In this document: positions 260-27,945 of the stretch, piece after piece
Position numbering within the stretch: the first letter of the stretch is position 1
Layout: every line of letters starts with the position of its first letter
NCBI GenBank assembly: GCA_036382495.1
Contig: DASVHS010000314.1
Span: forward strand, 1-30,507
Source: Thermoanaerobaculia bacterium
GTDB taxonomy: Bacteria > Acidobacteriota > Thermoanaerobaculia > Gp7-AA8
Direction of reading: 5' to 3'
Length of the DNA: 30,507 nt
Position numbers and translations under genes: made by a program
The notes under the pieces: generated by a model
Database searches by the model: none
The model's input: the letters and a program-made list of their open reading frames with translations, nothing else
Told to the model about the DNA's origin: nothing

Positions 260-366
260 CAGAGGGCAGAGGGCAGAGCGCAGAGGGCAGAGAGCAGAGG
301 GCTTAGGGCAGAGCGGAGACCGGTGCCTTATCTTCTGCGCTCTGCCCTCTGCCCTCCGCGCTCTGG
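260..366. repeat. Palindromic heptamer element, CAGAGSG family (8 units, spacer, reverse-complement units)
   Basis: cagaggg/cagagcg/cagagag units at 260-315; ctctg-containing inverse units at about 333-366. Confidence 0.95.
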
Positions 367-396
367 GTCCGGGCCCTCTGACTACAATGATCACCC

Positions 397-621
397 ATGG
401 CCCGTCGCCTCTGCGCCGTTCTCGCGATTTTCGCGCTCGTCATCCTCGCCCTCGTGCTGATGTGGCACGTCTATCTGCACCATCGCGCCGGCGGCGGTGA
501 GGACGATGGGCCGGGCGTGATCGCTCAGCTGTCACACAAGAATTGTCAGCGAACGGTTCGGATGAAGAACCGCACCTTGCTGCCCTTCAACTCGGCCGGT
601 GCCGTCACGGTTCGTGCGTAA
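397..621 (+). CDS. Putative small single-pass membrane protein
   Basis: Hydrophobic N-terminus (LCAVLAIFALVILALVLMW). TACAAT at 383-388 lies 8 nt before the ATG, the same pattern as real genes here. The 3' end overlaps the convergent gene by 76 bp. Confidence 0.45.
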   Translation: MARRLCAVLAIFALVILALVLMWHVYLHHRAGGGEDDGPGVIAQLSHKNCQRTVRMKNRTLLPFNSAGAVTVRA

Positions 622-1775
622 ACCACGCTGACCAGCACGTCGAAGTCGCGGACGGTGATCGCCATCTCCGATCCGAGGCCGGCGTCGACGACGGCGCCGT
701 TGCTCTTGACGAGCTGGTTGTACTTGAATCCGACGGTACCGGCGCCGAGATAGCCGATGCCGTACATCGTGTTCCAGTGCATCTGCCACATCCGGTAGTC
801 GCGGTTTCGAAAGACCGGCACGAAGAATTCGTTCGTCAGATGGATCTCGTGTGTGCCGTCCGACGTCGTGTCGTTGACGGCTTTCAGTGCCTCGCGTCCG
901 CCGAGCTGAAACATCTCGTAACGCGGGATGCTGTACCGCTCGTCTTCGGCAAGAGCCGGGTTCTGCGCCTCGCTCACGCGGGTCGAACCGGCGAACATAC
1001 CGAAGTGGAGTCGCGAGAAGATGAATGATGTCGCGGTGATGTCGGTGCGGTGCAGTCCTTCCGCTTCGAGCTTCGTGTAGTGGTAGTCGCCGGTCGAGAC
1101 TTTAACCGACTCGGTGATCGCCGCCGCGAGTCCGGTCTTCTGTGGACCGATGTCGCGGAACGCAGTCAGAACGGGTGTGATCCGGCCGCGCGACTCGCCG
1201 ACGATCCCGTTGAGCCGTTCATCGAACTGTGTGCCGAACTGATAGCCGACCTTCGTGTAGGTGTTGTTCTTCTTGTTGTCGACGTTGGTCGCGTTGCCGA
1301 ACGTGAGCCGGTCGTCCTGGATGAGCCAGAAATACCGTTTGTTGTAATCGCGTGGGAATCCGAAAAGCAGAAGGCCGCCGCGCACGCGCTCGAATTCGGA
1401 CGTCTTGGCCCCGCTGCTCGACTTGCCGACATCCTGGAAGTTGATTTGGTCGAAGACGCCGATCCGGTACGTGAAGTTCTTCGCGTAGTACTTGTAGCGG
1501 AGGAACGTGCTGATGTCGCCGGTGACGAACTTGTAGTCGATCTGGCTCTCGAACAACACGTTCCGGATCAGCTTCCTCAGCCGGATCGAAGCCGATCCCT
1601 CAGGCAGGTAAACATTCAGGCTGGGAAGCGTGTCGCGCCGCTCATAGCCGCCGGCGCTGTCCGACAGGATGGGAGGCGCGGCGGGCGGAGGGGGCGGTGG
1701 TTCCGGAGTCTGGCCGAAAATCGCTACGGTACAAAGCGAAGCGGCGAGCCCCGCCGTGACGGTCAGAATGCGCAT
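546..1775 (-). CDS. Outer-membrane beta-barrel protein, Omp85/surface-antigen-like, with no evident POTRA domains
   Basis: Signal peptide MRILTVTAGLAASLCTVAIFG, poly-Pro linker, alternating aromatic beta-strands, and an L6-like segment FQLGGREALKAV. Start moved from 1796 to ATG 1775. Confidence 0.65.
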   Translation of the reverse strand: MRILTVTAGLAASLCTVAIFGQTPEPPPPPPAAPPILSDSAGGYERRDTLPSLNVYLPEGSASIRLRKLIRNVLFESQIDYKFVTGDISTFLRYKYYAKNFTYRIGVFDQINFQDVGKSSSGAKTSEFERVRGGLLLFGFPRDYNKRYFWLIQDDRLTFGNATNVDNKKNNTYTKVGYQFGTQFDERLNGIVGESRGRITPVLTAFRDIGPQKTGLAAAITESVKVSTGDYHYTKLEAEGLHRTDITATSFIFSRLHFGMFAGSTRVSEAQNPALAEDERYSIPRYEMFQLGGREALKAVNDTTSDGTHEIHLTNEFFVPVFRNRDYRMWQMHWNTMYGIGYLGAGTVGFKYNQLVKSNGAVVDAGLGSEMAITVRDFDVLVSVVYARTVTAPAELKGSKVRFFIRTVR

Positions 1776-1877
1776 GGACCTGTCGTAAATGTACATTAGG
1801 AAAGGATGATACTCGCTGACTCAACGTATGATAAACTTCAAGGCCTGAAGTGTTTACGCGAACAAGTGACCGTGGCT

Positions 1878-1895
1878 CTGGCACACGTTTTGTAA
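1878..1895 (+). promoter_or_regulatory. Sigma-54-like promoter upstream of the OmpA-domain gene
   Basis: TGGCAC-acgtt-TTGTA against consensus TGGCAC-N5-TTGCW; one mismatch at the -12 C. Confidence 0.4.
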
Positions 1896-1952
1896 TGCGC
1901 CGGGGATTATAGCTGCGGACGGTGACCGTGCGAAGCTTTTAGGAGGTGTGAC

Positions 1953-5707: not shown

Positions 5708-5784
5708 AACAGAGGGCAGAGCGCAGAGCGCAGATGGACGACTTCAGTCTCCTGCGCTCTGCGCACTGCCCTCCGCGCTCTGTT
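5708..5784. repeat. Palindromic heptamer element, CAGAGSG family, between convergent genes
   Basis: cagaggg cagagcg cagagcg ... cgctctg cgcactg ccctccg cgctctg. Confidence 0.95.
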
Positions 5785-5788: not shown

Positions 5789-6550
5789 TTAAGGTTCAGC
5801 TCCGAACACGAGCGTTGCCAGCGCCACGGCGACGCGGCGATCGAGCGTCGCATTCGAGGAGAGATCGAGGTAGTCCGCTTCGCCGGCCTGGTCGGGACGG
5901 CGGACGATCACTCCGGACGCGACGCCCTGGTGATAGATGCGGATGTTGGCCTCGCGCGTACGATTGAACTTGCCGATGAACTTCCGGACGATCGCGCGCC
6001 AGAACGATTCTTCGACGGCGAACGCGGCCCCGCGCTGATCGGCGGGCGAGTCGATCGACCAGCTGTTGCGCCCGAGTCGCGACAGTACGTTGCGTCCGAG
6101 GAGAGCGATGGTTGTGCCGTCGGGAGTTTTGACGGCGTACGACGTGCGCGGAAACGCGACACGCGATTGTTGCGTGATCAGCAGCGCGGGAGTCTCGTCT
6201 TCGTACAGCGTCACACGCGTTCGCGGGACGAGCGCGGCGATGAACCCCGAGAAGCCGAAGCCGAGGATGAGTGCGAGAACGGCGGCGCCGGGGTGGTGTT
6301 CGGCGAGGAGGAACAGCGTCGCGGCGATACCCGCAACGAGCACGATGCCGGCGACGAGCGCGGCGACGATCGTGACGATCGAGGCGAAGCCGCGGTAGGT
6401 GAGCAGCACCTGGCCGTCGCTGTCGCGGATGTGCGCCGTCTCGGCCGCGGGCACGCCGCTCTCGAACGAGAACCGCGTGCTGTTGAATGCACGCTGCGGA
6501 TGCGAGGGCTTGTCGGCCGGCGCGGTGATCCTCCGCTCGAGCGGGTCCAC
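5789..6550 (-). CDS. Membrane protein with two TM helices and a LURP-one/scramblase-like C-terminal domain; probably the C-terminal part of the upstream FHA gene
   Basis: Two hydrophobic helices, then a beta-rich region ending LDRRVAVALATLV. The frame stays open upstream to 6664, through the A10 tract. Confidence 0.75.
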   Translation of the reverse strand: MDPLERRITAPADKPSHPQRAFNSTRFSFESGVPAAETAHIRDSDGQVLLTYRGFASIVTIVAALVAGIVLVAGIAATLFLLAEHHPGAAVLALILGFGFSGFIAALVPRTRVTLYEDETPALLITQQSRVAFPRTSYAVKTPDGTTIALLGRNVLSRLGRNSWSIDSPADQRGAAFAVEESFWRAIVRKFIGKFNRTREANIRIYHQGVASGVIVRRPDQAGEADYLDLSSNATLDRRVAVALATLVFGAEP

Positions 6551-7059: not shown

Positions 7060-7470
7060 CTAGCCTACTCGGCCGTCCACGCCTTCGGCGGTCCGCCGTG
7101 GGCGTTGAATGTGCTCGACGAGGTCGTCGATGGAAACCGGCTTTGTCAGCCAGCACTGGACGCGCGAGTCGACCGTGCCCTCCGGCGGCGGGGGCTGGCC
7201 GCTGATCACGATGACGGTGACGTCGTCATCGTGACCGAGCCGCGACAGGACCTCGCCGCCGTCCATGAGCGGCATGAGCCAGTCGAGGAGGATGACATCG
7301 GGCTTCTCGCCGCTCGAGATCCGCTCGACGGCTTCGGCTCCGTTCGCGGCGAGCTTGACCTCGAAGCCACGCTGGTTGAGGCCGATCGCGTAGAGGCGGC
7401 GAACATCGGCGTCGTCCTCGACGATGAGGATTTTGGGCCTGCTCACCCGTGACATTTGTGCAGGTTCCAT
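7060..7470 (-). CDS. Stand-alone response regulator receiver (CheY-like); start uncertain (7470, 7455 or 7446)
   Basis: [19 protein letters not shown] and LTKP motifs. Confidence 0.9.
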
Positions 7471-7511
7471 GCGCAGGAGTCGTGCTATTCTCCCGCGACT
7501 CTCGCGTAGCC

Positions 7512-8048
7512 ATGAACGTTAAGAAACGACTTCTCGATGCGCCACGGATGCACCGCGCCATCCGTCGCATGGCGATCGAGGTCGTCGAGCGCAACCGCGG
7601 GATCAACGACCTCATCATTGTCGGCATTCGCAGCCGTGGTGTTCCGATCGGCGAGCGGATGGCGAAAGAGATCAGTGAGATGGAGGGAGCGCCGGTCCCG
7701 TTCGGCATCCTCGACATCACGCTCTACCGCGACGACCTGACGACAATTGCGCCGCAGCCGGTGGTCAAGCCGACAAAACTTCCCGAGCCGATCGACGACA
7801 AGATCGTCGTGCTCGTCGACGACGTTCTCTACACGGGCCGCACGGTCCGCGCCGCGCTCGACGCGCTCATCGACTTCGGCCGTCCCAAGGCGGTGCAGCT
7901 CGCGGTCCTCATCGACCGCGGCCATCGCGAGCTGCCGATCCACGCCGACGTGATCGGCAAAACCGTTCCCACCGACGCGAACGAAGTGATCAAGGTGAGG
8001 CTGGTGGAGACTGATGGCGAGGATGAAGTTCTCATCATGGAGAAGTAG
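7512..8048 (+). CDS. pyrR: Bifunctional pyrimidine regulatory protein / uracil phosphoribosyltransferase PyrR
   Basis: [28 protein letters not shown] and DRGHRELPI motifs. Start moved to ATG 7512; extended -10 TGcTATTCT at 7483-7491. Confidence 0.96.
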
Positions 8049-8113
8049 TTGCCGGTTACCGGTTACCGGTTGCCCTCGTGGCGACCGGCAACCGGCAACC
8101 GGTAACCGGTAAC
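8048..8113. repeat. Palindromic heptamer element, GTTRCCG family, filling the pyrR-pyrB gap
   Basis: gttgccg gttaccg gttaccg gttgccc ... cggcaac cggcaac cggtaac cggtaac. Confidence 0.95.
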
Positions 8114-8114
8114 G

Positions 8115-9059
<945 letters not shown>

Positions 9060-9066
9060 AGAAGAT

Positions 9067-9158
9067 GAATTTCGAATTTCGAAGTTCGAATTCAGAATGA
9101 AGAAACGAACTGCAAATCAATTCTTCATTCTTCATTCGAAATTCGAACTTCGAAATTC
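9067..9158. repeat. Palindromic heptamer element, AT-rich GAATTTC/GAATGAA family, between pyrB and pyrC
   Basis: gaatttc gaatttc gaagttc gaattca gaatgaa ... ttcattc ttcattc gaaattc gaacttc gaaattc. Confidence 0.95.
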
Positions 9159-9167
9159 TTTGGACTA

Positions 9168-10475
9168 ATGAATCTCCTCATCCAAAACGGCCGCGTCATC
9201 GACCCCAGTCAGGGTCTCGACGCGAAGCTCGACGTCCTGATCGAGGACGGCTCGATCGCGAGGGTCGACAAGAAGATCAAAGCAGACGTCGAGACGATCG
9301 ATGCCACCGGCCTGATCGTGACGCCGGGCTTCATCGACCTGCACACGCATCTGCGCGAGCCGGGGCAGGAGCACAAGGAGACGATCGCCACCGGCACGCG
9401 CGCCGCGGTGGCGGGCGGCTACACGGCGGTCTGCGCGATGGCGAACACCGTTCCGCCGAACGACGAGCGTGCCGTCACCGAGATGGTGCTCGCCGAATCC
9501 GCCCGCAATGGCGTGTGCCGCGTCTACCCGATCGGTGCGGTCAGCCGCGGTCTGAAAGGTGAAGCGCTCGCCGAGCTCGCCGAATTGCGCGCCGCCGGCT
9601 GTGTCGCGGTCAGCGACGATGGGAAGCCGGTTTGCAACGCGCAGCTGATGCGCCGCGCACTCGAATACTCGTCGATGCTGGGCATGCCCGTCATCGCACA
9701 CGAAGAGGACGCCAACCTCAACGAAGGGGGCGTCATGCACGAGGGCTACTACTCCACACTCCTCGGCCTTTACGGGATTCCGGCGGCCTCGGAAGAGACG
9801 ATGGCCGCGCGCGACGTGATCCTGGCGCGGATGACCGGGGGCCACGTGCACATCGCGCATCTGTCGACGGCCGGTGCGATCGATGTCGTTCGCGCGGCGC
9901 GGAAAAGCGGCGTGAATGTGACGTGCGAGGTGACGCCGCACCACATCGCCCTGACGGACGAGGACGTGCAGTCGTTCTCGACGAACCTCAAGATGAACCC
10001 ACCGCTTCGATCGGCAGCTCATCGAGACGCGTTGCTCGACGCGATCGCGGACGGAACCGTCGACGCCATCGCCACCGATCACGCGCCGCATCATTTCGAC
10101 GAGAAGAATGTGGAGTTCGACCTCGCGCCGTTCGGGATCATCGGACTGGAGACCGCATTCGCGATCTGCCACGAACGGCTCGTGCGCTCGAAGGTGATCG
10201 GACTGGCGAGGTTGATCGAGTTGTTGTCGAGCGGTCCGGCGCGAGTGTTCAATCTGCCCGGAGGAACTCTCGCGGAAGGCAGCGCCGGCGACGTCACGCT
10301 CGTCGATGTCGATGCCCGGTACCAGATCACGAATACGTTCCGCTCGAAAGCATCGAACTCGCCGTTCATCGGCGAGACCGTTCACGGCCGGGTCATCGCC
10401 ACGATCGTCGCCGGCGTCATGCGCTACGACACGCGCGAATCGCACCCGGCGCCGAAGAGAAAAGCGCGGAAATGA
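9168..10475 (+). CDS. pyrC: Dihydroorotase (long type)
   Basis: DLHTHLREPG, KMNPPLR and IATDHAPH motifs; located after pyrB. Confidence 0.95.
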   Translation: MNLLIQNGRVIDPSQGLDAKLDVLIEDGSIARVDKKIKADVETIDATGLIVTPGFIDLHTHLREPGQEHKETIATGTRAAVAGGYTAVCAMANTVPPNDERAVTEMVLAESARNGVCRVYPIGAVSRGLKGEALAELAELRAAGCVAVSDDGKPVCNAQLMRRALEYSSMLGMPVIAHEEDANLNEGGVMHEGYYSTLLGLYGIPAASEETMAARDVILARMTGGHVHIAHLSTAGAIDVVRAARKSGVNVTCEVTPHHIALTDEDVQSFSTNLKMNPPLRSAAHRDALLDAIADGTVDAIATDHAPHHFDEKNVEFDLAPFGIIGLETAFAICHERLVRSKVIGLARLIELLSSGPARVFNLPGGTLAEGSAGDVTLVDVDARYQITNTFRSKASNSPFIGETVHGRVIATIVAGVMRYDTRESHPAPKRKARK

Positions 10476-10861
10476 AACGGATCGTCGTCGTCGACGACTC
10501 TCCGGCGTTCTGCGCACTCTGGTCGAACTTCATCGTCGAGCGATACGCCGACGTGGCCCGGGTCGAGTCCTACTCACATCCCTACGATGCTTTGCCGAAG
10601 ATCGACGACACGATCGACCTGCTCATCGTCGATCTGGAGATGCCCGGCATGGACGGCAAGAAATTCGTCGAATACGCCCGGCAGAAGGGCGTCCCGCCCA
10701 GCCACATCGTTGTGACCTCCTCGCACTCCGCGGAGGAATTGCACCAGCGGTTCCGGATCGGGGAAACCATCGCCGTGATCAACAAAACCGATCCCAAGCA
10801 GCAGGAGGCGTTTCTCATGATTCTGGACTCAGTGGTGAGGAAAAAGACGAAGGATGAATGA
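10472..10861 (+). CDS. Stand-alone response regulator receiver, coupled to pyrC
   Basis: MKRIVVVDDS...LIVDLEMPGMDG...VTS...INK; ATGA overlap with the pyrC stop. Confidence 0.88.
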   Translation: MKRIVVVDDSPAFCALWSNFIVERYADVARVESYSHPYDALPKIDDTIDLLIVDLEMPGMDGKKFVEYARQKGVPPSHIVVTSSHSAEELHQRFRIGETIAVINKTDPKQQEAFLMILDSVVRKKTKDE

Positions 10862-10914
10862 GGGATGAACGATGACGAACACGTGTCTGTGATTCATCCC
10901 TCATCCCTCAGCCC
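10846..10914. repeat. Degenerate palindromic heptamer element, GGATGAR/YTCATCC family
   Basis: gacgaaggatgaatgagggatgaacgatgac ... ttcatcc ctcatcc ctcagcc. Confidence 0.75.
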
Positions 10915-10939
10915 TATCCCTCCGTATAATCAGCTCGCA

Positions 10940-12388
10940 ATGACGGCCCAGGCCCAGGAACCCCGCCAACTGACGCTGAACGACCTGCTCGTCTACATGT
11001 CGAAGCAGCAGGCCTCGGATCTTCATTTGAAACCGATGCGTCCGCCGCTGATCCGCCTGCGCGGAAAGCTGCTGCCGGTCGCCGGGACGGAGCCGCTCAA
11101 GCCCGCCGATCTCGAGAAGATGCTCCTGCCGATCCTCAACCGCACGCAGCGAGAGAAGTTCGACTCGAACCAGTCGGTCGACTTCGGGTACGGCGTTCCC
11201 GGCGTGGCCCGCTTCCGCGGCAACATGTACATGCAGCGCGGTACGGTCGGCGCGGTGTTCCGCCGCATCCCGATCCAGATCATGACCGTCGATCAGCTTG
11301 AGTTGCCGTCTGCGATCGTCGACATGACGCAGATCCCCGATGGGCTCGTGCTCGTCACCGGACCGACGGGCTCCGGCAAGTCGACAACGCTCGCGGCGAT
11401 GATCCTCGAGATCGCCGAGCATGAGCCGCTGCACATCGTCACGATCGAGGACCCGATCGAGTTCCTCTTCATCGACCGCGTCGCCGCCATCTCGCAGCGC
11501 GAGGTCGGCACGGACACGCCGGCGTTCAAGGAAGCGCTTCGCAATGCGATGCGCCAGGACCCCGACGTGATCATGGTCGGCGAGATGCGCGACGTCGACA
11601 CGATTCAGACCGTCATGACCGCGGCCGAGACCGGGCATCTCGTGTTCTCGACGCTGCACACGAACAACGCCGCGCAGACGATCGACCGAATCATCGATGC
11701 GTTCCCGGCCGATCAGCACAAACAGATCCGCTCGCAGCTCGCGCTGGTCCTGCGCGGCATCGTCTCGCTGAAGCTCATCAAGACGAAGGAAGGTCAGATG
11801 ACCGCGGCGGTGGAGATCCTCAAGAACTCACCGCGCGTCGCCAAGCTGATCGAGGAAGGGCAGACCAAGGACATCCTCGAGGAGATGGAAAGCTCCGTCG
11901 GGCTTTATCGGATGCAGTCGATGAATCAATCGCTCATCGCGCTGCTCGTTCATCAGAAGATCAGTTACAAGGACGCGATGTTGCTGGCGTCCGACCCGGA
12001 CGACCTCTCGCTCAAAGTGCGCAAGCTCTTTCCGCAGATCGAAGATCGCGTCCGCCAGGGAGGAGACATGGCCCCGACGTATTCGGATTTCTCGCAGATC
12101 ACCGAGCTCATGGACATCAAGCGCCTCTATGAGGAGCAGGAAGTCCAGTGGCGCCAGCGCATGACCGACAAGGAAGAAGAGGTCGAGAACGTGAAGCGCG
12201 ATCTCGAGGGCGTTCGCCAGCAGGCCTCGGAGAACGAAGGCGGCGGCAAAGAGAAGGACGAGGAGATCGCACGGGTCCGCGGCGAGATGGAGCGGCTGCG
12301 CGCCGACGCCCAGGGCAAGATCGGCCAGCTCCAGGAGCGCATCAAGGAGCTCAATCAGAAGTTGATCGCGGCGGGAGTGAAGAAGTAG
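10940..12388 (+). CDS. PilT/PilU-family type IV pilus retraction-type ATPase with a C-terminal coiled-coil extension
   Basis: [30 protein letters not shown] and [10 protein letters not shown] motifs. Start moved to 10940, with TATAAT at 10925-10930. Confidence 0.92.
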
Positions 12389-12460
12389 GTCGCTGGGACG
12401 CTGGGTCGCTGGGTCGCCAGGCAAACCCCAGCGACCCAGCGACCGAGCGACCGAGCGACC
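12388..12460. repeat. Palindromic octamer element, GGTCGCTS family
   Basis: ggtcgctg ggacgctg ggtcgctg ggtcgcca ... cagcgacc cagcgacc gagcgacc gagcgacc. Confidence 0.95.
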
Positions 12461-12465
12461 CGACG

Positions 12466-12852
12466 ATGAGCACACGACCGTCCAGGCAACTCGAGACCTT
12501 TCCCAACTCCAATCCCGAGCGCGACTACGAGATCTCGTTCGAGGCGCCCGAGTTCACCTGCCTATGTCCGATGACCGGCCAGCCTGACTTTGCCACGATC
12601 CGCATTCGTTACATCCCCGATGAGCTTTGCGTCGAGCTGAAGTCACTGAAGCTGTATCTCTGGTCTTTCCGCGACGAAGGGACGTTCCACGAAGCCGTCA
12701 CGAACCGCATCGCGAACGACCTGATCGCCGCGCTCGATCCCCGTTTCCTGGAAGTGGAAGGCGACTTCTACATCCGCGGCGGGATCAAGACGAAGGTGAT
12801 GGTTCAGCATCACAAAGACGGAGCGCAGAGGGCAGTGCGCAGAGCGCTGTAG
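12466..12852 (+). CDS. queF: NADPH-dependent 7-cyano-7-deazaguanine (preQ0) reductase, type I
   Basis: [26 protein letters not shown] and FHE motifs; start at ATG 12466. Confidence 0.96.
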
Positions 12853-12883
12853 TCTGCGCTCCGCCCTCTGCGCACTGCGCTCT
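12819..12883. repeat. Palindromic heptamer element, CAGAGSG family, overlapping the queF 3' end
   Basis: cggagcg cagaggg cagtgcg cagagcg ... cgctccg ccctctg cgcactg cgctct. Confidence 0.92.
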
Positions 12884-13910
12884 AAACCCCGGCGTCGCGT
12901 CTAAGCCGCCATCGCGCATTCACGCGGTCAACAAACGAAGAGCGTCCCCGCTCCAGCCATTCCGTCAACACATCGACACTGACCTCATCGAGCGCTTCCA
13001 CGATCGACAGACTGGCCGCTTCGGCGATCCGCGCGAGCGGCTTCTCCAGCTCCGCGACGACGCGCGCCGAGCGCGCCAGGATCGCCGCCAGATCGATCTC
13101 GTGCTCCATCGCCAGCATTCTCGTCGCCGTCATCGTGAGCAGGATCGACGCGTTCCAGTTGCTTTTCTCGTCCCAGCGCGGCGGCACGACGAAGTCGGCG
13201 ATTCCTGCTTCTGCGGCCAGCGCTGCGATGTGACGCTCGGTCGCGACGTGCACCGGTTCGAGATCCGCGTGAAACAGCGTCGCGTAGGTTTCGTGATCGC
13301 CGTCGAGCGAGAGCGACTGGGCGATGGCCTGCTTCGCCGTCGCGTCGATCGCGACCGGCAGCGCTGCCAGAAACGAGGCACCGCGCGACTTCGCACTCTC
13401 CGCGAGCGCGGCGAGCGCGGCGAGGTTCGTCGTCACCGGAAACATCACCGGCACCGCCACACCCCACGTCCCGGCCGCTTCGGCGAACAGCGAGTCGAGG
13501 CGATCGTATTCGAGCGGCCACGCCGCGATGACGATCGTGCTGTCGTCATGCGCCATCTGGGGCAGCGCACCCCGCGTCGAGACGAGGTGAATGGCGGGCA
13601 GGCCGCGCTCCGAGCAGAACGCCAGCACTTCCTCACCGCGCCGGAAAATCGCCTCGGCGAATTCCGCGGCGTCGATCAGGACCGGCGCCGCGATGCGGAC
13701 TGTCGATCGCTCCAGCTCGTCGGTCGTCCGCTCGCTGACGGTGACCTCGAGCTTGTCGCTCGCGCTCGCGCGCAGGTCGATGTAATCGATCGCCACCGGG
13801 GCCGAACGTCGCGCGCTGTACGGTGTCACGATCGTCGCGCCCCAGAACGGTGGCTCCGGAACCGTCACACGCCGGACGCGAAGCTGCGTCGATTTTCGAT
13901 AGACGATCAA
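12882..13910 (-). CDS. Hypothetical protein resembling a degenerate SPL-like radical SAM fold plus a PolX-type N-terminal helical domain
   Basis: TTG start overlapping the ribE stop (TTGA). Family resemblance is by eye only; no CxxxCxxC motif. Confidence 0.7.
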   Translation of the reverse strand: MIVYRKSTQLRVRRVTVPEPPFWGATIVTPYSARRSAPVAIDYIDLRASASDKLEVTVSERTTDELERSTVRIAAPVLIDAAEFAEAIFRRGEEVLAFCSERGLPAIHLVSTRGALPQMAHDDSTIVIAAWPLEYDRLDSLFAEAAGTWGVAVPVMFPVTTNLAALAALAESAKSRGASFLAALPVAIDATAKQAIAQSLSLDGDHETYATLFHADLEPVHVATERHIAALAAEAGIADFVVPPRWDEKSNWNASILLTMTATRMLAMEHEIDLAAILARSARVVAELEKPLARIAEAASLSIVEALDEVSVDVLTEWLERGRSSFVDRVNARWRLRRDAGV

Positions 13911-14512: not shown

Positions 14513-14514
14513 TT

Positions 14515-14584
14515 GATCAGATCGCAGATCGCAGATCGCAGATCGCGGCGGACTCCTGCGATCTGCGATCCGCCATCGGCGATC
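14515..14584. repeat. Palindromic heptamer element, GATCGCA family, filling the ribD-ribE gap
   Basis: gatcgca x3, gatcgcg ... tgcgatc tgcgatc cgccatc ggcgatc. Confidence 0.93.
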
Positions 14585-15664: not shown

Positions 15665-15699
15665 AAAAGAAAAAGGGCAGGCCGTTTTCGACCTGCCCT
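15665..15699 (-). terminator. Intrinsic terminator of the HtrA gene
   Basis: On the minus strand: agggcagg-N10-cctgccct followed by ttttcttttg. Confidence 0.85.
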
Positions 15700-15725
15700 C
15701 TGCGCACTGCGCTCAGCGCTCTGTT
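15693..15725. repeat. Single-arm CAGAGSG heptamer array merged into the terminator stem
   Basis: ctg ccctctg cgcactg cgctcag cgctctg. Confidence 0.85.
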
Positions 15726-17571: not shown

Positions 17572-17826
17572 CTATGCGACGGTACGGCGGCCGACGATCA
17601 GGCGATAGATGAACAGGAGAACCATGGCCCCGATGATCGATCCGATCCATCCGGCGGCCTGCTCCGGACGGCCCATGACGTTTGTGGCCAGGAAGCCACC
17701 CACGAACGAGCCGGCGATCCCGAGGAGAATCGTGACAATCCAACCACCCGGGTCACGGCCGGGCATGAGGAACTTGGCGATGACGCCTACGATTGCGCCG
17801 AAGATGATCCATCCGATAAAGCTCAT
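17572..17826 (-). CDS. GlsB/YeaQ/YmgE-family (transglycosylase-associated) small membrane protein
   Basis: WIIFGAIVGVIAKFLMPGRDPGGWIVTILLGIAGSFVGG...GWIGSIIGAMVLLFIY; GGAGG upstream. Confidence 0.93.
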   Translation of the reverse strand: MSFIGWIIFGAIVGVIAKFLMPGRDPGGWIVTILLGIAGSFVGGFLATNVMGRPEQAAGWIGSIIGAMVLLFIYRLIVGRRTVA

Positions 17827-17902: not shown

Positions 17903-17978
17903 ACAGAGGGCAGAGCGCAGAGGGCAGAGCGCGGGCGGTGGAACTCCTGCGCTCTGCCCACTGCCCTCTGCGCTCTGT
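17903..17978. repeat. Palindromic heptamer element, CAGAGSG family, between divergent genes
   Basis: cagaggg cagagcg cagaggg cagagcg ... cgctctg cccactg ccctctg cgctctg. Confidence 0.95.
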
Positions 17979-19071: not shown

Positions 19072-19118
19072 AAGGCCTTGCTTTACAATCCGCGCGATTG
19101 AAACAAGAGGGAGCACTC

Positions 19119-19919
19119 ATGGCAGGCAATCTGATTGACTACAGAGTTGAAAAAGGCGTGGCGATCTTCGAGCTGAACGATCCGCCCGCGAACACCTACA
19201 CGTACGAAATGAACAAGGAGCTCGACACGTGCATCCTCAACGCGAGGATGGACGACGCCGTGCATGTGATCGTGATGCGCGGCGCGGGCGACAAGTTCTT
19301 CTCGGCCGGCGCGAACATCAAGATGCTCTCGGAGGTCACTCCGGGGTTCAAGTACATGTTCTGCCTGCACGCGAATGAAACGCTTCTCCGGTTCGAGCAC
19401 ACGCCGAAGCTCGTCATCGCCGCGCTCAACGGTCACACGGTCGGCGGCGGGCTGGAGATCGCCATGGCGGCCGACATCCGCATCGCGAAAAAAGGCGCGG
19501 GCAAAGTCGGTTTGCCGGAAGTCTCGCTGGGAGTGCTGCCCGGTACGGGCGGGACCCAGCGGCTGTCGCGCATCGTTGGGAAGTCGAAGGCCATCGAGAA
19601 GATGATCGAAGGCAACCTCTTCGAGTTCGAGGAAGCCCTCGACCTCGGCATCGTCAACTACGTGTGGCCCGAGGAAGAGAACGGGAAGAAGTGGTGGGAT
19701 CGGGTGATGGAGTATGCGTGGAGTTTCTGCCCGCCGAACAAGGCTGCCAAAGCCGTCGGCCGCATCAAGCGCGCCGTGCAGACGGGCTGGGAAATCCCGA
19801 TCGAAGCAGCGCTCGGCCTCGAGCGCGAGTTGCAGCAGCAACTCTTCCAGAGCGAAGACGCAAAGGAAGGCCTCGGCGCGTACAACCAGAAGAGAAAGCC
19901 GGCGTTCGCCGGGAAATAG
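19119..19919 (+). CDS. Enoyl-CoA hydratase/isomerase (crotonase) family protein
   Basis: FSAGANI, GGGLEIAMAADIR and LPEVSLGVLPGTGGTQRL motifs. Start moved to ATG 19119 (GAGGGAG SD; TACAAT at 19084). Confidence 0.93.
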   Translation: MAGNLIDYRVEKGVAIFELNDPPANTYTYEMNKELDTCILNARMDDAVHVIVMRGAGDKFFSAGANIKMLSEVTPGFKYMFCLHANETLLRFEHTPKLVIAALNGHTVGGGLEIAMAADIRIAKKGAGKVGLPEVSLGVLPGTGGTQRLSRIVGKSKAIEKMIEGNLFEFEEALDLGIVNYVWPEEENGKKWWDRVMEYAWSFCPPNKAAKAVGRIKRAVQTGWEIPIEAALGLERELQQQLFQSEDAKEGLGAYNQKRKPAFAGK

Positions 19920-19976
19920 TTACCGGTGCCCGGTTGCCGGTAGTCCCTTGGGCACCGGGCACCGGCAACAGGTAAC
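19919..19976. repeat. Palindromic heptamer element, GTTRCCG family
   Basis: gttaccg gtgcccg gttgccg ... cgggcac cggcaac aggtaac. Confidence 0.9.
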
Positions 19977-24243: not shown

Positions 24244-25689
24244 ATGATGCAGAACAAGCTGTTCATCAACGGCGAGTTCGTCGACGCCCGCAGCGGCGAG
24301 ACGTTCCCGACTTCCAATCCCGCCACCGAAGAGAAGATCACCGACGTTGCCTCGGCCGGCGTTGCCGACGTCGACGCTGCCGTCAAAGCGGCGCGCGCCC
24401 AGATGGAGCCGGGCTCGGAATGGCAGAAGATGAAGCCGCGCGACCGCGCGAAAGTCATGTGGCGCATCGCCGACATGCTCACCGCGAAGGCCGAGGAGAT
24501 CGGGCGGATCGAGACGATCGATAACGGGAAGCCGATTTTCGAGTCGCAGTTCGTCGATACGCCGGCCGCGGCCGAGTGCCTCTATTACTTCGCCGGCTGG
24601 TCGGGCAAAGTCACCGGCGACACGATCCCCGTCGCCGACAACGCGTTCACGTACACGCTGCGCGAGCCGGTCGGCGTCGTCGGCGCGATCACGCCGTGGA
24701 ACTTTCCGCTGATGCTCGCCGTGTGGAAGATCGCGCCCGCGCTGGCGTGCGGCAACACGATCGTCATCAAGCCGGCGTCGAATACATCGTTGTCGCTGCT
24801 GAAGTTCGCGGAATACGCGAAAGAGTGCGGATTGCCTGCCGGAGTCCTGAACGTGATCCCGGGCAAAGGCTCGGTTGTCGGCAACGCCATCGTCGATCAT
24901 CCGGGTGTCGATGCGATCGCATTCACAGGATCGACAGAAGTCGGCAAGAGCCTGATGGCGCGCGCGGCGAAGACGCTGAAGAAAGTCTCGCTCGAGCTCG
25001 GAGGCAAATCGCCGAACATCGTGTTCGCCGACGCCGACCTCGAGGCCGCGTCGCGCGGTGCACTCAACGCCATCTTCTACGGCAAGGGCGAAGTCTGCGC
25101 CGCCGGATCGCGGCTGCTCGTCGAAGAATCGATCCACGACGAACTGATGACGAAAATCGCCGAGCGCGCGAACAAGATGGTCGCCGCGGATCCTCTCCAT
25201 CCCAAGACGCGACTCGGTGCGATCGTTTCGAAAGAGCAGATGGACTCGGTGATGAAGTACATCGACGCGGGCAAGAGCGAAGGCGCGAAGCTCATCGCCG
25301 GCGGCGAGCGCGCCGACATCGGCACGGGCAAGGGTTACTTCGTGAAGCCGACGATCTTCACCGACGTGCAGCCGGACATGCGCATCGCCCGTGAAGAAAT
25401 CTTCGGCCCCGTGCTCGCCACGATTCGATTCAAGGATGCCGAGGATGCGATCGCGAAGGGGAATGCGACGGTGTACGGACTGGCGGCCGCCGTCTGGACG
25501 CGCGACATCTCCAAGGCACATCGCATCGCCCGCGCGATCAAAGCGGGCACGGTGTGGATCAACACGTACAACCTCTACGATCCCGCGCTGCCGTTCGGCG
25601 GCTTCAAGGAGTCAGGCTTCGGCCGCGATCAGGGGAAAGATGCGCTGGAAAAGTACACGCAGACAAAATCGGTCTGGGTCAATCTGTAG
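24244..25689 (+). CDS. NAD(P)-dependent aldehyde dehydrogenase
   Basis: ITPWNFP, FTGSTEVG, ELGGKSP, catalytic Cys in GEVCAAGSR, EEIFGPV and PFGGFKESG motifs. Confidence 0.96.
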   Translation: MMQNKLFINGEFVDARSGETFPTSNPATEEKITDVASAGVADVDAAVKAARAQMEPGSEWQKMKPRDRAKVMWRIADMLTAKAEEIGRIETIDNGKPIFESQFVDTPAAAECLYYFAGWSGKVTGDTIPVADNAFTYTLREPVGVVGAITPWNFPLMLAVWKIAPALACGNTIVIKPASNTSLSLLKFAEYAKECGLPAGVLNVIPGKGSVVGNAIVDHPGVDAIAFTGSTEVGKSLMARAAKTLKKVSLELGGKSPNIVFADADLEAASRGALNAIFYGKGEVCAAGSRLLVEESIHDELMTKIAERANKMVAADPLHPKTRLGAIVSKEQMDSVMKYIDAGKSEGAKLIAGGERADIGTGKGYFVKPTIFTDVQPDMRIAREEIFGPVLATIRFKDAEDAIAKGNATVYGLAAAVWTRDISKAHRIARAIKAGTVWINTYNLYDPALPFGGFKESGFGRDQGKDALEKYTQTKSVWVNL

Positions 25690-25719
25690 CCGTCGCACTC
25701 CTATACAATCCCGCCGACT

Positions 25720-26898
25720 ATGAAAAAACAGCTTCTAGTGCTCACGGTTGTCGCGCTTTCCGTCCTGCTTCTCGGCTGTCCTCCGAAAGAGAGTGGCGGC
25801 GGCGGAACATCCGGCGGAGGCAGCACCAGGGAGATTCTCGTCGGCGAATACGGCTCGATGACCGGAGCGCAGGCGACGTTCGGCACGTCGACGCATCAGG
25901 GCGCCGTGCTCGCGGTCGAGCAGGTCAACGCCGCTGGCGGGATCAAGGGTCGCAAAATCAAACTCCTGACCGAAGACGATCAGTCGAAGTCGGAGGAGGC
26001 CGCCAACACCGTCACCAAGCTGATCTCGCAGAACAGCGTCATCGCCGTTCTCGGCGAAGTCGCTTCGTCCGCTTCGATCGCCGCGGCTCCGATCGCTCAG
26101 TCGAATAAGGTGCCGATGATTACGCCGTCCTCGACGAATGAAGCCGTCACAAAGATCGGCGACTACATCTTCCGCATGTGCTTCATCGACAACTATCAGG
26201 GTCCGGTCATGGCGCGGTTCGCCACGCAGACGCTGAAGTCGAAGCGCGGCGCGATCCTCACCGATGTGAAGAACGACTACTCGACCGGTCTCACGAAGGT
26301 CATACGGGAGACGTTCAACACAACCGGCGGCAAGATCGTCGGCGAGCAGAGCTACTCAAACGGCGACAGCGACTTCCACCCGCAGCTGACCACGATCAAG
26401 TCGGAGAATCCCGACGTGATCTTCATCCCCGGCTACTACGGCGACGCCGCGCAGATCGTCAGCCAGGCCCGCGACCTCGGAATCACGGTGCCGTTCGTCG
26501 GCGGCGACGGATGGGAATCGCCGAAACTGCTCGAGATCGGCGGCAAAGCGCTCAACGGCTGCTACTACGCGAACCATTACTTCTCCGGCGATCCCGATCC
26601 GGTCGTCCGCAACTTCGTCACGCAGTATCAGAAGCGCTGGAACGTGGTCCCGGGCGCTCTCGACGCGCTCGGATTCGACGCGGCCAGCGTCCTCGCGGAC
26701 GCGATCAAGCGCGCCGGCACGACCGACGAGCCGAAACTGCGCGACGCCATCGCCAGCACGAAAGACTTCCGCGGAGTGACGGGAAACATCACGCTCGGCC
26801 CGGACCGCAATCCGGTCGGCAAGAAGATCGTCGTCATCGCCATCAAGGATGGACAGCTGACGCTGGCCATGACCATCGATCCGAGCGCGAAGAAGTAA
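25720..26898 (+). CDS. livK: Branched-chain amino acid ABC transporter substrate-binding lipoprotein (LivK/LivJ family)
   Basis: Lipobox LLGC; EDDQSK, PMITPSSTN, FRMCFID and GGDGW motifs; first gene of a livHMGF cluster. Confidence 0.9.
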   Translation: MKKQLLVLTVVALSVLLLGCPPKESGGGGTSGGGSTREILVGEYGSMTGAQATFGTSTHQGAVLAVEQVNAAGGIKGRKIKLLTEDDQSKSEEAANTVTKLISQNSVIAVLGEVASSASIAAAPIAQSNKVPMITPSSTNEAVTKIGDYIFRMCFIDNYQGPVMARFATQTLKSKRGAILTDVKNDYSTGLTKVIRETFNTTGGKIVGEQSYSNGDSDFHPQLTTIKSENPDVIFIPGYYGDAAQIVSQARDLGITVPFVGGDGWESPKLLEIGGKALNGCYYANHYFSGDPDPVVRNFVTQYQKRWNVVPGALDALGFDAASVLADAIKRAGTTDEPKLRDAIASTKDFRGVTGNITLGPDRNPVGKKIVVIAIKDGQLTLAMTIDPSAKK

Positions 26899-26952
26899 CT
26901 CTTTACAACGAACGCGTCCGGCCTGTAGTTTGCGCCGGACCATTTCGTTTGT

Positions 26953-27858
26953 ATGCAGCCACTTCTCCAGAATCTGCTGAATGGCATCGCCTCCGGCGCG
27001 ATCTACGCGCTGATCGCACTCGGGTACACGATGGTGTACGGCATCCTCAAGCTGATCAACTTCGCGCACGGTGACATCTTCATGCTCGGGTCGTTCGTCG
27101 GCTATTACGCCGGCGGATACATGGTCAGGCACATGAACGGCCAGTCGTCGTTCGGCAGCGCGGCGCTCATCCTCCTGCTGTCGATGATCTGCTGCGGGAT
27201 CTTCGGCTTCATCAACGAGCGGGTCGCGTACCGGCCGCTGCGCAACTCACCGCGCATCGCGTCGCTGATCACCGCGATCGGCGTGTCGTTCTTCCTCGAG
27301 TACGGCGGCCAGATGGTGTTCGGCCCCGATCCGAAATTCTTCCCGACGCTGATCCCGAAGAAGATCATCAACTTCGGCGGCATCACCACGACGAACTACC
27401 AGATCATCGTGCTCATCGTCGCCCTGGTGTTCATGGCGCTGCTGCAGTACATCGTCTACGCCACGAAGTTCGGCCGAGCCATGCGCGCGGTCTCGTTCAA
27501 TTTAGAGACCGCCGCGCTGATGGGCATTCCGACCGATCGCATCATCTCGATGACGTTCATCATCGGCTCGACGCTCGCCGGCGTCGCCGGGATCCTGTAC
27601 GGCCTCTCGTATCCGAAGATCGATCCGCTGATGGGCATCATGCCCGGCCTGAAAGCGTTCGTCGCCGCGGTCCTCGGCGGCATCGGCAACGTTCCGGGCG
27701 CGGTGGTGGGTGGCCTGATCATCGGCGTGATCGAGGCGTTCGTCGGCGGCAGCTCGTTCTCGAACTATCGCGACGCGATCGCCTTTGTCATTCTCATTGT
27801 GATTTTGCTTTTCCGACCCTCCGGCCTGTTTGGAAAGTATCAGCCGGAGAAGGTATGA
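26953..27858 (+). CDS. livH: Branched-chain amino acid ABC transporter permease LivH
   Basis: YALIALGYTMVYGILKLINFAHG and GLKAFVAAVLGGIG motifs. Confidence 0.95.
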   Translation: MQPLLQNLLNGIASGAIYALIALGYTMVYGILKLINFAHGDIFMLGSFVGYYAGGYMVRHMNGQSSFGSAALILLLSMICCGIFGFINERVAYRPLRNSPRIASLITAIGVSFFLEYGGQMVFGPDPKFFPTLIPKKIINFGGITTTNYQIIVLIVALVFMALLQYIVYATKFGRAMRAVSFNLETAALMGIPTDRIISMTFIIGSTLAGVAGILYGLSYPKIDPLMGIMPGLKAFVAAVLGGIGNVPGAVVGGLIIGVIEAFVGGSSFSNYRDAIAFVILIVILLFRPSGLFGKYQPEKV

Positions 27859-27859
27859 A

Positions 27860-27945
27860 AGGCAGAGGGCAGAGGGCAGAAGGCAGAAGTGGTTATCGCG
27901 AGCGCGGAACACTTCTGCCTTCTGCCCTCTGCCTTCTGACTTCTT
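27860..27945. repeat. Palindromic heptamer element, CAGARGG variant of the CAGAGSG family, between livH and livM
   Basis: cagaggg cagaggg cagaagg cagaagt ... acttctg ccttctg ccctctg ccttctg. Confidence 0.95.

Follow-up and report, generated by a model that had tools for sequence, protein, structure and literature searches.

Background

Dispersed tandem heptamers that pair with inverted copies of themselves have precedents in other bacteria. In Xanthomonas campestris, GGGAATC heptamers form 70 convergent inverted pairs among 186 arrays, usually of four units (Rehm et al. 2015, PMC4692102). There and in X. axonopodis the tandem heptamers are, like those described here, mostly intergenic, and sister species occupy the same gaps with varying length and sequence (PMC4692102). 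That system consists of a single unit family, studied as a G-quadruplex former and with no link drawn to a four-helix-bundle protein, whereas the genome analysed here holds about ten unit families, most of them unable to form G4, in gaps that are filled or empty within one genus. In Geobacter metallireducens, paired tandem 7-, 8- and 9-mers were read as 'global regulator binding sites' (Aklujkar et al. 2009, PMC2700814). The portions of that paper covered here describe, as in our case, several classes per genome with one layout of 3-5 units (GTTGCTYN, TCTCCGTS[Y], MTYCTGA), in dozens of copies forming opposite-strand pairs at variable distance, between and within genes; unlike the present work, these portions contain no analysis of gene cargo or turnover. 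Slippage on heptamers has itself been proposed (Mrazek 2007, as cited in PMC4679880 and PMC4692102).

RNase III cleaves the Coxiella burnetii 23S rRNA intervening sequence (IVS) at its first repeat, and a selfish or mobile nature has been suggested for this IVS (Warrier et al. 2016, PMC4990558); ORF-bearing 23S rRNA IVSs are also found in Leptospira (Ralph and McClelland 1993, as cited in PMC4990558). They share with the cassettes described below a long inverted-repeat stem with an S23p/PF05635 ORF in its loop (PMC4990558). ORF-bearing IVSs lie in helix 45 or 25 of the rRNA, whereas the elements of our window are ORF-free and lie between protein genes. Gene-less versions (Xanthomonas, Geobacter) and heptamers beside this ORF (Coxiella IVS) are already published; our literature search found no paper tying gene-less heptamer hairpins to PF05635 cassettes. 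An earlier sequence-only reading of this DNA had taken REP/BIME elements and cyanobacterial STRR arrays as the established background, which omits the Xanthomonas inverted pairs and the Geobacter unit classes.

The STRR heptamers of cyanobacteria (Calothrix, Nostoc, Anabaena) are described as direct arrays used for fingerprinting. Like the present elements they are tandem heptamers scattered through intergenic DNA, with several types of unit, and they differ in being described as direct; their tie to PF05635 comes from the ten-locus test of this analysis only and is not published. REP/BIME/REPIN elements with their RAYT are likewise abundant intergenic palindrome families tolerated after stop codons, whereas here we see no common 20-40-nt consensus palindrome, no RAYT linkage, arms made of tandem repeats, and unrelated loops. 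Drosophila foldback (FB) transposons have long inverted termini built from short tandem repeats, in numbers that differ from copy to copy. As in our elements, the centre can vary or be missing, and genes are present in some copies; eukaryotic, far larger and unrelated in sequence, they offer an analogy of workings, not membership.

Here we analyse a 30,507-nt stretch (the window) from the fragmented assembly of a Thermoanaerobaculia MAG, a soil bacterium (90 % completeness). We consider it probable (roughly 0.6) that the twelve repeat elements of the window are gene-less members of a foldback-insertion family whose full-length form encloses a PF05635 gene.

Results

Twelve elements of one geometry

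The elements are given below with their RNA folding energy and z score against dinucleotide shuffles; entries rest on TRF plus direct reading unless marked.

260-365: CAGAGSG hairpin, about 7 units in the 5′ arm, loop of about 30 nt, about 4.6 CSCTCTG units in the 3′ arm; between minus-strand genes 2-244 and 546-1796; -74 kcal/mol, z -6.9
5708-5782: CAGAGSG hairpin filling a convergent-gene gap, from the first base beyond the SpoIID/SPOR gene's TAA (end 5707) to 6 nt short of the stop of 5789-6550 (minus strand); -50.1 kcal/mol, z -6.9
8048-8113: GTTRCCG hairpin taking up the pyrR-pyrB gap end to end: it runs from the stop codon of pyrR up to 1 nt short of the pyrB ATG (8115); -51.8 kcal/mol, z -7.3
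9067-9160: GAATTTC-family hairpin in the pyrB-pyrC gap, arm units shifting in succession (GAATTTC, GAAGTTC, GAATTCA, GAATGAA); -40.1 kcal/mol, z -6.9
10846-10925: weaker GGATGAR hairpin upstream of a pilT-like ATPase gene, followed by a conserved CGTATAATC; clean array in the 3′ arm only (TRF calls no 5′ arm); -30.6 kcal/mol, z -4.3
12388-12461: octamer (GGTCGCTG) hairpin starting at the final base of the pilT-like gene's stop codon; -62.1 kcal/mol, z -10.0
12819-12885: CAGAGSG hairpin, loop 7 nt, adjoining the stop of 12882-13910 (minus strand); the weak ORF 12571-12852 crosses its 5′ arm and stops in its loop; -42.5 kcal/mol, z -4.3
14515-14584: CAGATCG hairpin between two minus-strand genes; -44.4 kcal/mol, z -5.6
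15693-15723: single 3′-type arm, about 4 CTGCSCT units (direct reading)
17903-17977: CAGAGSG hairpin in the divergent gap between 17572-17826 (minus strand) and about 18052 (plus strand); -63.4 kcal/mol, z -8.8
19919-19970: weaker short hairpin, 2-3 GTTACCG/GTGCCCG units per arm, beginning at the stop codon of 19098-19919 (plus strand; direct reading); -36.5 kcal/mol, z -4.7
27859-27949: CAGARGG hairpin starting at the base after the stop of 26953-27858 (plus strand); -68.7 kcal/mol, z -10.6

The sequence-only reading had located these twelve elements, of which nine are clear hairpins, two are weaker (10846, 19919) and one is a single arm (15693). It had also assigned the units correctly (CAGAGSG six times, GTTRCCG twice, GAATTTC/GAATGAA, GGATGAR, GATCGCA and GGTCGCTS) and recognised a single geometry recurring with differing unit sequences in co-directional, convergent and divergent gaps. 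The 7-20-nt spacer that it gave was too narrow, since loops span 3-44 nt (5th-95th percentile) with a median of 19. As RNA, the 11 window hairpins have folding energies between -31 and -74 kcal/mol (z between -4.3 and -10.6), values matched by none of 200 dinucleotide shuffles. The single arm at 15693 joins an ordinary terminator-like hairpin at about 15674-15699 (GGGCAGG..CCTGCCC; T5 on the minus strand); this arrangement is kept in congener G001, and the other four congeners have plain GC-rich hairpins next to A runs. Across the genome, loops also contain REP-like palindromes, a terminator and other heptamer hairpins.

Abundance and placement in the genome

Genome-wide we found 883 period-7 arrays versus 13 in a first-order Markov control, an abundance far beyond chance. 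A reverse-complement partner lies within arm length plus 50 nt of 615 of the 883, compared with 25 for a complement-only control, and of none of the 1006 period-6 arrays in the same genome. The non-overlapping hairpins number 304. By our own crude gene caller, on which all intergenic and stop-distance figures depend, 323 of 367 raw hairpin calls (88 %) lie wholly between genes, with coding sequence making up 91 % of the genome. The median distance is 4 nt to a stop codon and 25 nt to a start codon, and 45 % of the hairpins fall within -3 to +5 nt of a stop codon. Elements occur almost solely where nothing gets broken: in gaps, mostly directly after stop codons.

Dispersed families of intergenic palindromes invite comparison with REP/REPIN-like elements moved by a RAYT or an IS200-type HUH tyrosine transposase, and the genome does contain one Y1_Tnp match. 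This single match is weak (31.9 bits) against about ten unit families, and its contig is without heptamer arrays, in agreement with the lack of RAYT or transposase linkage noted in the window. Moreover the arms are tandem repeats, not a single 20-40-nt palindrome, and the same genome has a separate, distinct REP-like family (ATGTCATCCCGAGCG...). We therefore hold such an origin to be highly improbable.

Hairpin arms enclose PF05635 genes

The sequence-only reading had listed an unknown mobiliser among its possibilities. Beyond the window there is a linked gene family: hairpins of the unit families seen here contain PF05635 genes. This genome has four PF05635 (23S-rRNA-IVS/Avd-like four-helix-bundle) genes, and each of them is set between inverted heptamer arms, with four different units in all, although one locus is at a contig edge and shows one side only. 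On contig C372 the flanking unit is the CAGATCG of element 14515, and on contig C669 it is CAGARGG, identical in unit and arm order to element 27859. Of the 304 gene-less hairpins, 157 match one of the four cassette units with the polarity preserved, or 39 per unit, compared with 3.1 per unit for cassette units of other genomes. Among 40 relatives, 46 of 49 PF05635 loci are armed (28 of the 29 best and 18 of the 20 additional ones); in a position control, 27 of 30 real PF05635 positions had arms versus 1 of 126 mock positions. Cassettes for several large families (GAATTTC, GGATGAR, octamer and AGCTCTC) are absent from this fragmented assembly; cassettes with these or close units were seen in relatives only, among them a G003 gene flanked by the octamer of element 12388, of which about 12 copies exist genome-wide here.

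The association also holds between genomes. GTCCTCG arrays are abundant in G017 (288), G001 (118), G003 (100) and G005 (91) and almost lacking in about 30 others, and the richest genomes are those with a cassette bearing GTCCTCG or a close variant. Units agree within 1 mismatch in 4/4 pairs of PF05635 proteins that are 70-85 % identical, and in only about 2 % of pairs below 55 % identity. Further afield, 7 of 10 four-helix-bundle genes on cyanobacterial plasmids have inverted short-unit arms, mostly heptamers, and Xanthomonas XCC0516, the PF05635 protein of solved structure, adjoins a GGGAATC array.

Unit families are related and polar

Among 44 polarity-aware units we count 51 single-substitution links versus 9.3 expected. 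One connected component, which takes in 211 of the 294 heptamer hairpins, unites CAGAGSG, GATCGCA, GAATTTC/GAATGAA and GGATGAR; four of the six window units, earlier considered unrelated, thus belong to one network. Individual arms contain different unit variants side by side, and the unit sequence of both arms evolves in concert. Arm order is constant per family (AGAGCGC 57:0, AATTTCG 61:1, AGATCGC 37:0), and in the GAATTTC family (n=75) the outer-to-inner order of units is conserved around unrelated loops. Two hairpins at unrelated loci are 93 % alike over 115 nt of arms plus loop. This is the only clear inter-locus copy with its loop among 304 hairpins, so either whole hairpins are seldom copied or their loops are replaced quickly.

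Rapid turnover among congeners

Elements are gained, lost and replaced fast between species within one genus. The pyrR-pyrB gap of element 8048 measures 1 nt in G005; its occupants elsewhere are AGTGCTG (G004), the octamer GGTTGCGA (G002) and AACCGTT (G001). The pyrB-pyrC gap of element 9067 contains a GAATGTT hairpin in G004 and measures -4 nt in G005, while G002, G003 and G001 have 11-24 nt there. For element 5708, same-genus genomes have a repeat-free gap or AACGGTT, GGTCGTA or GGGTCTC units; for element 12819, 10-12 nt (G003, G001) or GGTCGTN hairpins (G004, G005); for element 14515, -1 nt (G004, G002), a single-arm (GGGATTC)4 (G005) or a GGGATTC hairpin (G001); and for element 19919, 9 nt (G001, G002, G004), a 167-nt octamer hairpin (G003) or duplicated GAATCCC arrays (G005). 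Element 17903 is missing from the orthologous gap in all five congeners. Across six congeners, one orthologous gap is variously occupied by a cassette, empty (28 nt), marked by a 2-unit footprint, or filled by hairpins that lack a gene and have two other units, and further gaps are filled in some congeners and empty in others. No target-site duplication was found at the filled versus empty sites compared among congeners.

This turnover bears on whether the hairpins are host elements under selection: terminators, mRNA 3′ stabilisers, devices coupling translation of cistrons, or global-regulator sites as proposed for Geobacter. The tight fit against stop codons, the highly stable stems and the distribution over gaps (204 tandem, 52 convergent and 34 divergent, the last lower per available gap) are compatible with such roles, and REP hairpins of E. 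coli affect mRNA in such ways. Several genomes retain the unit of the hairpin that lies upstream of pilT beside a conserved TATAAT: GGATGAR fills this gap in G001, G004, L013 and L016. However, congeners that share the operon, such as pyrR-pyrB-pyrC, have nothing in these gaps (-4 to 12 nt), so the host genes do not need the hairpins. A TTTT run follows within 8 nt downstream in only 2.3 %, so the hairpins do not qualify as canonical intrinsic terminators. There is free variation in unit, length and loop, and the same arms surround a selfish-looking gene. A host function is a distinctly unlikely general explanation.

Somewhat less improbable, yet still unlikely, is that the hairpins arise in place, the polymerase slipping on 7-nt units and the opposite arm forming by fold-back or template switching; nothing would move, and PF05635 would be a separate mobile entity preferring hairpin loops. 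Arm unit number does change by slippage, as had been suspected: a second version of the element 260 locus on contig C616, near-identical in flanks and loop, has 12 units in the 5′ arm versus 6 in the window. Single-arm and near-palindromic arrays share gaps with hairpins of sister species, as with the GGGATTC arrays of G005 and G001 above, and the short G003 and G001 gaps hold one to three GAAATTCG-like units at the site of the window's GAATTTC hairpin. Loops carry other inserts, and orthologous cassettes in four genera keep heptameric arms while the unit drifts (AGTGCTG, AGTGCCG, ACTGAGG, AGGTATG). Against this, random local seeds would not yield 57-75 loci sharing unit and arm order and, for GAATTTC, also variant order. 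Dominant units are genome-specific and match the arms of that genome's own cassettes, close PF05635 relatives keep their unit despite different genomic contexts (AGCTCTT in both G009 and G022), and the one copy between unrelated loci takes in the loop.

Discussion

We favour the foldback-insertion family, in which the stem consists of two inverted tandem heptamer (sometimes octamer) arrays and the full-length cassette would place these arms around an S23p/Avd-like gene, of a family whose first members came from 23S rRNA intervening sequences. In this picture each genome harbours a few cassettes, each with its own unit, and tens of gene-less hairpins sharing that unit and arm order. In the reverse direction, PF05635 genes could home into pre-existing hairpin loops. 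The elements probably spread as selfish or near-neutral DNA, and the four-helix-bundle protein may assist in trans. As to the route, we know of no movement enzyme and of no DNA-processing activity for PF05635 proteins, and no reverse transcriptase was found in the genome at 90 % completeness.

The family may also shape the transcripts of its host. This genome encodes an RNase III, and on the model of the Coxiella IVS the enzyme would cut the 28-40-bp stems once they are transcribed. Such cuts would split polycistronic transcripts and define RNA ends.

The hairpins of the window

All twelve elements that a sequence-only reading had described in the window are present; eleven consist of tandem units, a spacer and reverse-complement units, and one is a single arm. 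They divide as follows.

Repeat elements of the window, by start position
260, 5708, 8048, 9067, 12819, 14515, 17903, 27859: heptamer hairpins (TRF and direct reading)
12388: octamer hairpin (TRF and direct reading)
10846: weaker hairpin, 3′ arm alone clean
19919: weaker hairpin, 2-3 units per arm
15693: single arm, no partner

Folded as RNA, the eleven hairpins reach minimum free energies (MFE) of -31 to -74 kcal/mol (z = -4.3 to -10.6) and are beaten by no dinucleotide shuffle. The single arm at 15693 adjoins a GC hairpin of the ordinary kind, behind which the minus strand has T5; one congener keeps this arrangement, and in the other four the place is taken by plain hairpins rich in GC next to runs of A. 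All twelve elements lie between protein-coding genes and not in helix 25 or 45 of 23S rRNA, where the intervening sequences (IVS) of that RNA are sited. Because all twelve are free of ORFs, and no PF05635 match falls on contig C314, we file them as gene-less relatives of cassettes, that is, of PF05635 (S23p/Avd-like four-helix-bundle) genes enclosed by inverted short-unit arms. No Rfam family matches the window at gathering score.

At 7449-10475 of the window, hairpins are the sole separation between pyrR, pyrB and pyrC, and the pyrB ATG at 8115 stands 1 nt past a stem end, with no visible Shine-Dalgarno sequence. At 10926-10934 a conserved -10-like box, CGTATAATC, follows the GGATGAR hairpin upstream of a pilT-like gene; it is kept in the window and in the same-genus genomes G001, G002, G003 and G004, in G002 without the hairpin. 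This pilT-like gene has its nearest loci in MAGs of the Thermoanaerobaculia (Acidobacteriota). At 12571-12852 a weak 93-codon ORF crosses the 5′ arm of hairpin 12819 and ends in its loop; it may have been called wrongly, or the insertion may have reshaped the end of a gene.

Abundance and placement across the genome

The scan for tandem 7/8-mer arrays with a nearby reverse complement that the sequence-only reading had proposed was run with our own detector on the whole genome (3.89 Mb, 723 contigs, 90 % complete), using first-order Markov sequence as the control for arrays and a complement-only search as the control for partners. It returned 883 period-7 arrays against 13 in the Markov control, 54 against 0 for period 8, and 1006 against 165 for period 6. 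A reverse-complement partner within arm length plus 50 nt accompanies 615 of the 883 period-7 arrays, compared with 25 in the control; for period-6 arrays there is none in the genome. The resulting 367 raw hairpin calls (353 period-7, 14 period-8; median length 78 nt, median loop 19 nt) merge into 304 separate hairpins. The median stem has 39 pairs, with an MFE of -60 kcal/mol compared with -32 for shuffles.

Genes were predicted with our own simple codon-usage caller (3773 genes, 91 % coding). Although the genome is so densely coding, 323/367 raw calls are intergenic by these predictions (at most 10 % overlap with called genes). Gaps between co-directional genes hold 204 hairpins, convergent gaps 52 and divergent gaps 34. 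The elements sit just behind stop codons, at a median distance of 4 nt, and 25 nt from start codons; genome-wide, 16 % of start-facing element ends fall within -3 to +5 nt of the start codon. Hairpins probably also break assemblies, 56/367 raw calls touching contig ends.

Rho-independent termination was rejected as a general reading. The stems are not followed by a U-tract: TTTT occurs within 8 nt downstream of only 2.3 % of hairpins (T fraction 0.24 versus 0.20 in the background), and the hairpins are therefore not canonical terminators. Extension of the stems into unique flanks was likewise dismissed as a general feature (7.4 % versus 1.6 % in permuted pairs).

Unit families and fixed arm order

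The units had been taken to be unrelated in sequence, and this part of the earlier description has to be given up. Among 44 polarity-aware units we count 51 single-substitution links, where 9.3 are expected and 300 random sets gave at most 21. A single component of 23 units covers 211/294 heptamer hairpins and joins CAGAGSG, CAGATCG, CAGAAGG, GAATTTC and GGATGAR; GTTRCCG and the octamer lie outside it.

Within a family, the order of the two arms is fixed: 57:0 for AGAGCGC, 61:1 for AATTTCG, 37:0 for AGATCGC and 17:0 for AGGCCCT. Since a hairpin reads alike on both strands, this is a real asymmetry and indicates either shared ancestry or a polar process. Variants within an arm are ordered as well. 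In 75 GAATTTC-type elements the arm runs, from outside to inside, GAATTTC, GAAGTTC, GAAGTTC, GAATGAA, GAATTAA, GAATTGn, and CAGAGSG arms have four units, then often CAGGAGA. The loops of one family are unrelated in sequence and in length.

A second palindromic family, ATGTCATCCCGAGCG..AGCGAGGGA with its complement, occurs inside the loops of several heptamer hairpins of this genome (C168:3849-3939, C80:~70-190 and C284:~565-665), and its outer end, TCATCCC/GGGATGA, is the GGATGAR unit. On C396 (13878-14222) a CAGATCG arm pair lies within the ORF for a NadR-like ATPase C-terminal region, so these arms are read through as coding sequence.

PF05635 cassettes and their gene-less counterparts

Two of the widely spaced arm pairs enclose ~350-420 nt coding for ~120-aa helical proteins. 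A family search found four PF05635 (23S_rRNA_IVP) genes in this genome, and all four stand between inverted heptamer arms, each of another unit.

PF05635 cassettes of the genome, by contig
C167: arms AGGCCCK
C264: arms GTTRCCG
C372: arms CGATCYG; at a contig edge, one side visible
C669: arms CAGARGG

The C167 protein matches Xanthomonas XCC0516 (PDB 2gsc) with E = 1.3e-17. Other cargo between arms set far apart amounts to a REP-like palindrome (C168), nested hairpins (C219) and the intra-ORF pair of C396, and we dropped the idea that long-range arm pairs generally carry cargo other than PF05635.

The linkage extends across the class. Among 40 relatives, 28 of the 29 genomes examined have arms at their best PF05635 locus, with periods of 7 in 24, 8 in two, 9 in one and 10 in one; 18 of 20 additional loci are armed, and at one of the two unarmed ones GTCCTCG arrays stand on either side of a truncated gene. 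In total, 50/53 PF05635 genes examined in the lineage have arms. Under a single fixed criterion, 27/30 real positions are armed versus 1/126 mock positions at the same loci. One relative, G030, which is flagged as unpublished, is counted only in tallies over relatives, including the GTCCTCG array counts, and supports no claim. In the same-genus genome G003, four cassettes with four different units (L108, L134, L135, L137) lie within 33 kb (C18:19773-52748).

Cassettes and gene-less hairpins of one genome have their units in common. The four cassette units of the window's own genome match, in the same arm order, 157/304 hairpins, or 39 per unit; for 46 cassette units of other genomes the figure is 3.1 matching hairpins per unit. 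In the five congeners, the gene-less hairpins in gaps orthologous to those of the window use units that flank PF05635 in the same genome.

Examples of units common to hairpins and cassettes of the same congener
G001: GGATGAA
G002: octamer GGTTGCG; GGTCGTR
G003: octamer GGTCGCTG
G004: AGTGCTG; GGTCGTR
G005: GGGATTC

Arrays of GTCCTCG are numerous in four genomes with a cassette of that unit or one close to it, namely G017 (a relative within the class; 288 arrays), G001 (118), G003 (100) and G005 (91), and are nearly absent from about 30 others. Protein and arm unit diverge together: all four pairs of PF05635 proteins that are 70-85 % identical have units at most one mismatch apart, compared with ~2 % of pairs below 55 % identity. 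Two relatives, G009 and G022, have closely related proteins and the same unit in unrelated contexts, and one cassette is orthologous in four genera, its unit drifting jointly in both arms.

Turnover in orthologous gaps

The comparison of orthologous gaps suggested by the sequence-only reading was made in the five same-genus genomes, which are syntenic with the window at 76-82 % nucleotide identity, and it revealed presence, absence and unit swapping. The elements are gained, lost and replaced rapidly. Between pyrR and pyrB, where G005 has a gap of 1 nt, the window carries GTTRCCG, G004 AGTGCTG, G002 the octamer GGTTGCGA and G001 AACCGTT; for pyrB and pyrC the distance in G005 is -4 nt. At 14513 the gap is -1 nt in G004 and G002, with a single-arm (GGGATTC)4 in G005 and a GGGATTC hairpin in G001. 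At 19920 three genomes have a gap of 9 nt, and in the others it is filled by three different elements.

The gap of the C669 cassette spans the whole range, from 28 nt with no repeat in G003, through a two-unit TCATCCY footprint in G004, to gene-less hairpins of GGATGAA in G002 and of GGRGTTC in G001. In G005 the same gap (C70:47904-48847, L167) contains four GGGGTTC hairpins, and alternating with them the upstream gene's final ~170 nt in three copies; a hairpin has seeded this tandem segmental duplication. G005 has a comparable gene-end duplication at its counterpart of the 19920 gap. The C264 cassette recurs in G001, with AGTTGCT arms; its site is occupied by a plain GC hairpin in G004 and by a REP-like palindrome in G003.

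Comparison of filled with empty orthologous sites within the genus shows no target-site duplication. This speaks against MITEs, as does the lack of related loops within families, one pair excepted. Insertion restricted to existing hairpins was discarded too, several empty orthologous gaps of -4 to 12 nt having no hairpin.

Changes in unit number, copying and candidate mechanisms

A second version of window 1-462 occurs at C616:8726-9230; the two are ~90 % identical over 504 nt and almost the same in flanks and loop, and hence reflect either two strains in the bin or an unresolved overlap. In the 5′ arm of element 260 the window has 6 units and the C616 version 12, so unit number is quick to change. 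The contig pairs C610/C99 and C376/C581 behave in the same way.

Slippage on heptamers is a published idea (Mrazek 2007, as represented in papers citing it), and the main rival explanation is that hairpins are born in place by slippage and that PF05635 genes home into their loops. However, it leaves unexplained the genome-specific families with their fixed order of unit variants, and for this reason we consider it rather improbable.

Copying of whole hairpins happens, yet it is rare or old. At unrelated loci, the hairpins C219:4361 and C349:4754 are 93 % alike over 115 nt of arms and loop, with sharp ends, and one adjacent hairpin pair on C360 also has a common loop; all other loops are unique, three further loop-sharing pairs being discounted as overlapping or allelic contigs. 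With one inter-locus and one adjacent pair, shared loops were abandoned as a general sign of whole-element copying.

The linkage to HUH/TnpA(REP) genes raised by the sequence-only reading was looked for and none was found: the 90 %-complete genome has a single weak match to Y1_Tnp (IS200-like; 31.9 bits, C5:2582-2827), on a contig without heptamer arrays, and REP/REPIN elements with a RAYT were rejected on this ground. That match sits in a 680-nt stretch left empty by our gene caller. Avd, a DGR protein, is a relative of PF05635 (PMC10053308), and repeat synthesis of a telomerase-like or Avd-RT kind was considered; it is unsupported because no reverse transcriptase gene (PF00078) was found in the same 90 %-complete genome.

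The reading we prefer is that the hairpins are probably gene-less derivatives or dependants of the cassettes, and may persist as near-neutral insertions where nothing is broken. As RNA they are putative substrates of RNase III, whose gene (rnc) is present in this genome. A more far-reaching reading, to which we give a probability of about one in four, is that the PF05635 pentamer is the trans-acting factor of an undescribed bacterial foldback class. Recognition by each protein lineage of its own heptamer would drive copying or homogenisation of the arms, and one cassette would maintain tens of gene-less hairpins, much as a RAYT maintains REPINs.

Relation to described repeats

The gene-less version of this layout is already in print as the inverted heptamer pairs of Xanthomonas (PMC4692102) and as the paired 7/8/9-mer classes of Geobacter (PMC2700814). 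The elements described here have in common with them at least 2-3 tandem units of 7-9 nt, a convergent reverse-complement array in fixed order (615/883 arrays paired; order fixed per family) and a mainly intergenic position (323/367 raw calls). The G-tracts for G-quadruplexes stressed in Xanthomonas belong to the published interpretation and not to the layout; here GGG runs are missing from most units, for example GAATTTC, GTTACCG, CAGATCG and CAGAGCG. The supplementary table of the Xanthomonas paper places GGGAATC array 15 against XCC0516 (PMC4692102).

IVS-like PF05635 cassettes have an ORF in the loop, which is absent from the twelve window elements and present at four other loci of the genome. 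Their long inverted-repeat stem with tandem heptamers beside the ORF is found at those loci, with units and arm order common to the gene-less hairpins. In the Coxiella IVS, repeat number varies between strains and RNase III cuts at the first repeat (PMC4990558). This paper alone, in the literature searched, treats S23p/PF05635 together with heptamers, and no general link between PF05635 genes and heptamer repeats was found there.

PF05635 is known inside cas operons (PMC3936711). On cyanobacterial plasmids, 7/10 four-helix-bundle genes examined have inverted short-unit arms, mostly heptamers, and several are wedged between cas genes. Two of these loci, L156 (Nostoc sp. PCC 7120 plasmid gamma) and L157 (a Stanieria plasmid), have CAGAGGG/CAGAAGG arms, the unit of hairpin 27859 and of the C669 cassette. 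The best matches of the C669 protein are three Thermoanaerobaculia proteins, followed by those of L156 and L157 (32 % and 28 % identity).

Significance

Among the long simple repeats of many bacterial genomes, heptamer repeats are the most frequent. To our knowledge they have had no accepted explanation since 2007, and we know of none for 23S rRNA intervening sequences and their S23p ORF since about 1990. Here one genome displays both kinds of element, cassettes with a gene in small number and hairpins without one by the hundred, with unit and arm order in common. Because of this, and because gaps within the genus are found empty or with a footprint, a hairpin or a cassette, the relation of master and miniature is testable. 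The hairpins fill operon gaps and therefore may set the sites at which transcripts are cut; they are also open to misreading as terminators or regulator sites. If PF05635 does act in trans, the intervening sequences of 23S rRNA, cyanobacterial STRR, the GGGAATC repeats of Xanthomonas, the "regulator sites" of Geobacter and the present hairpins would be one phenomenon.
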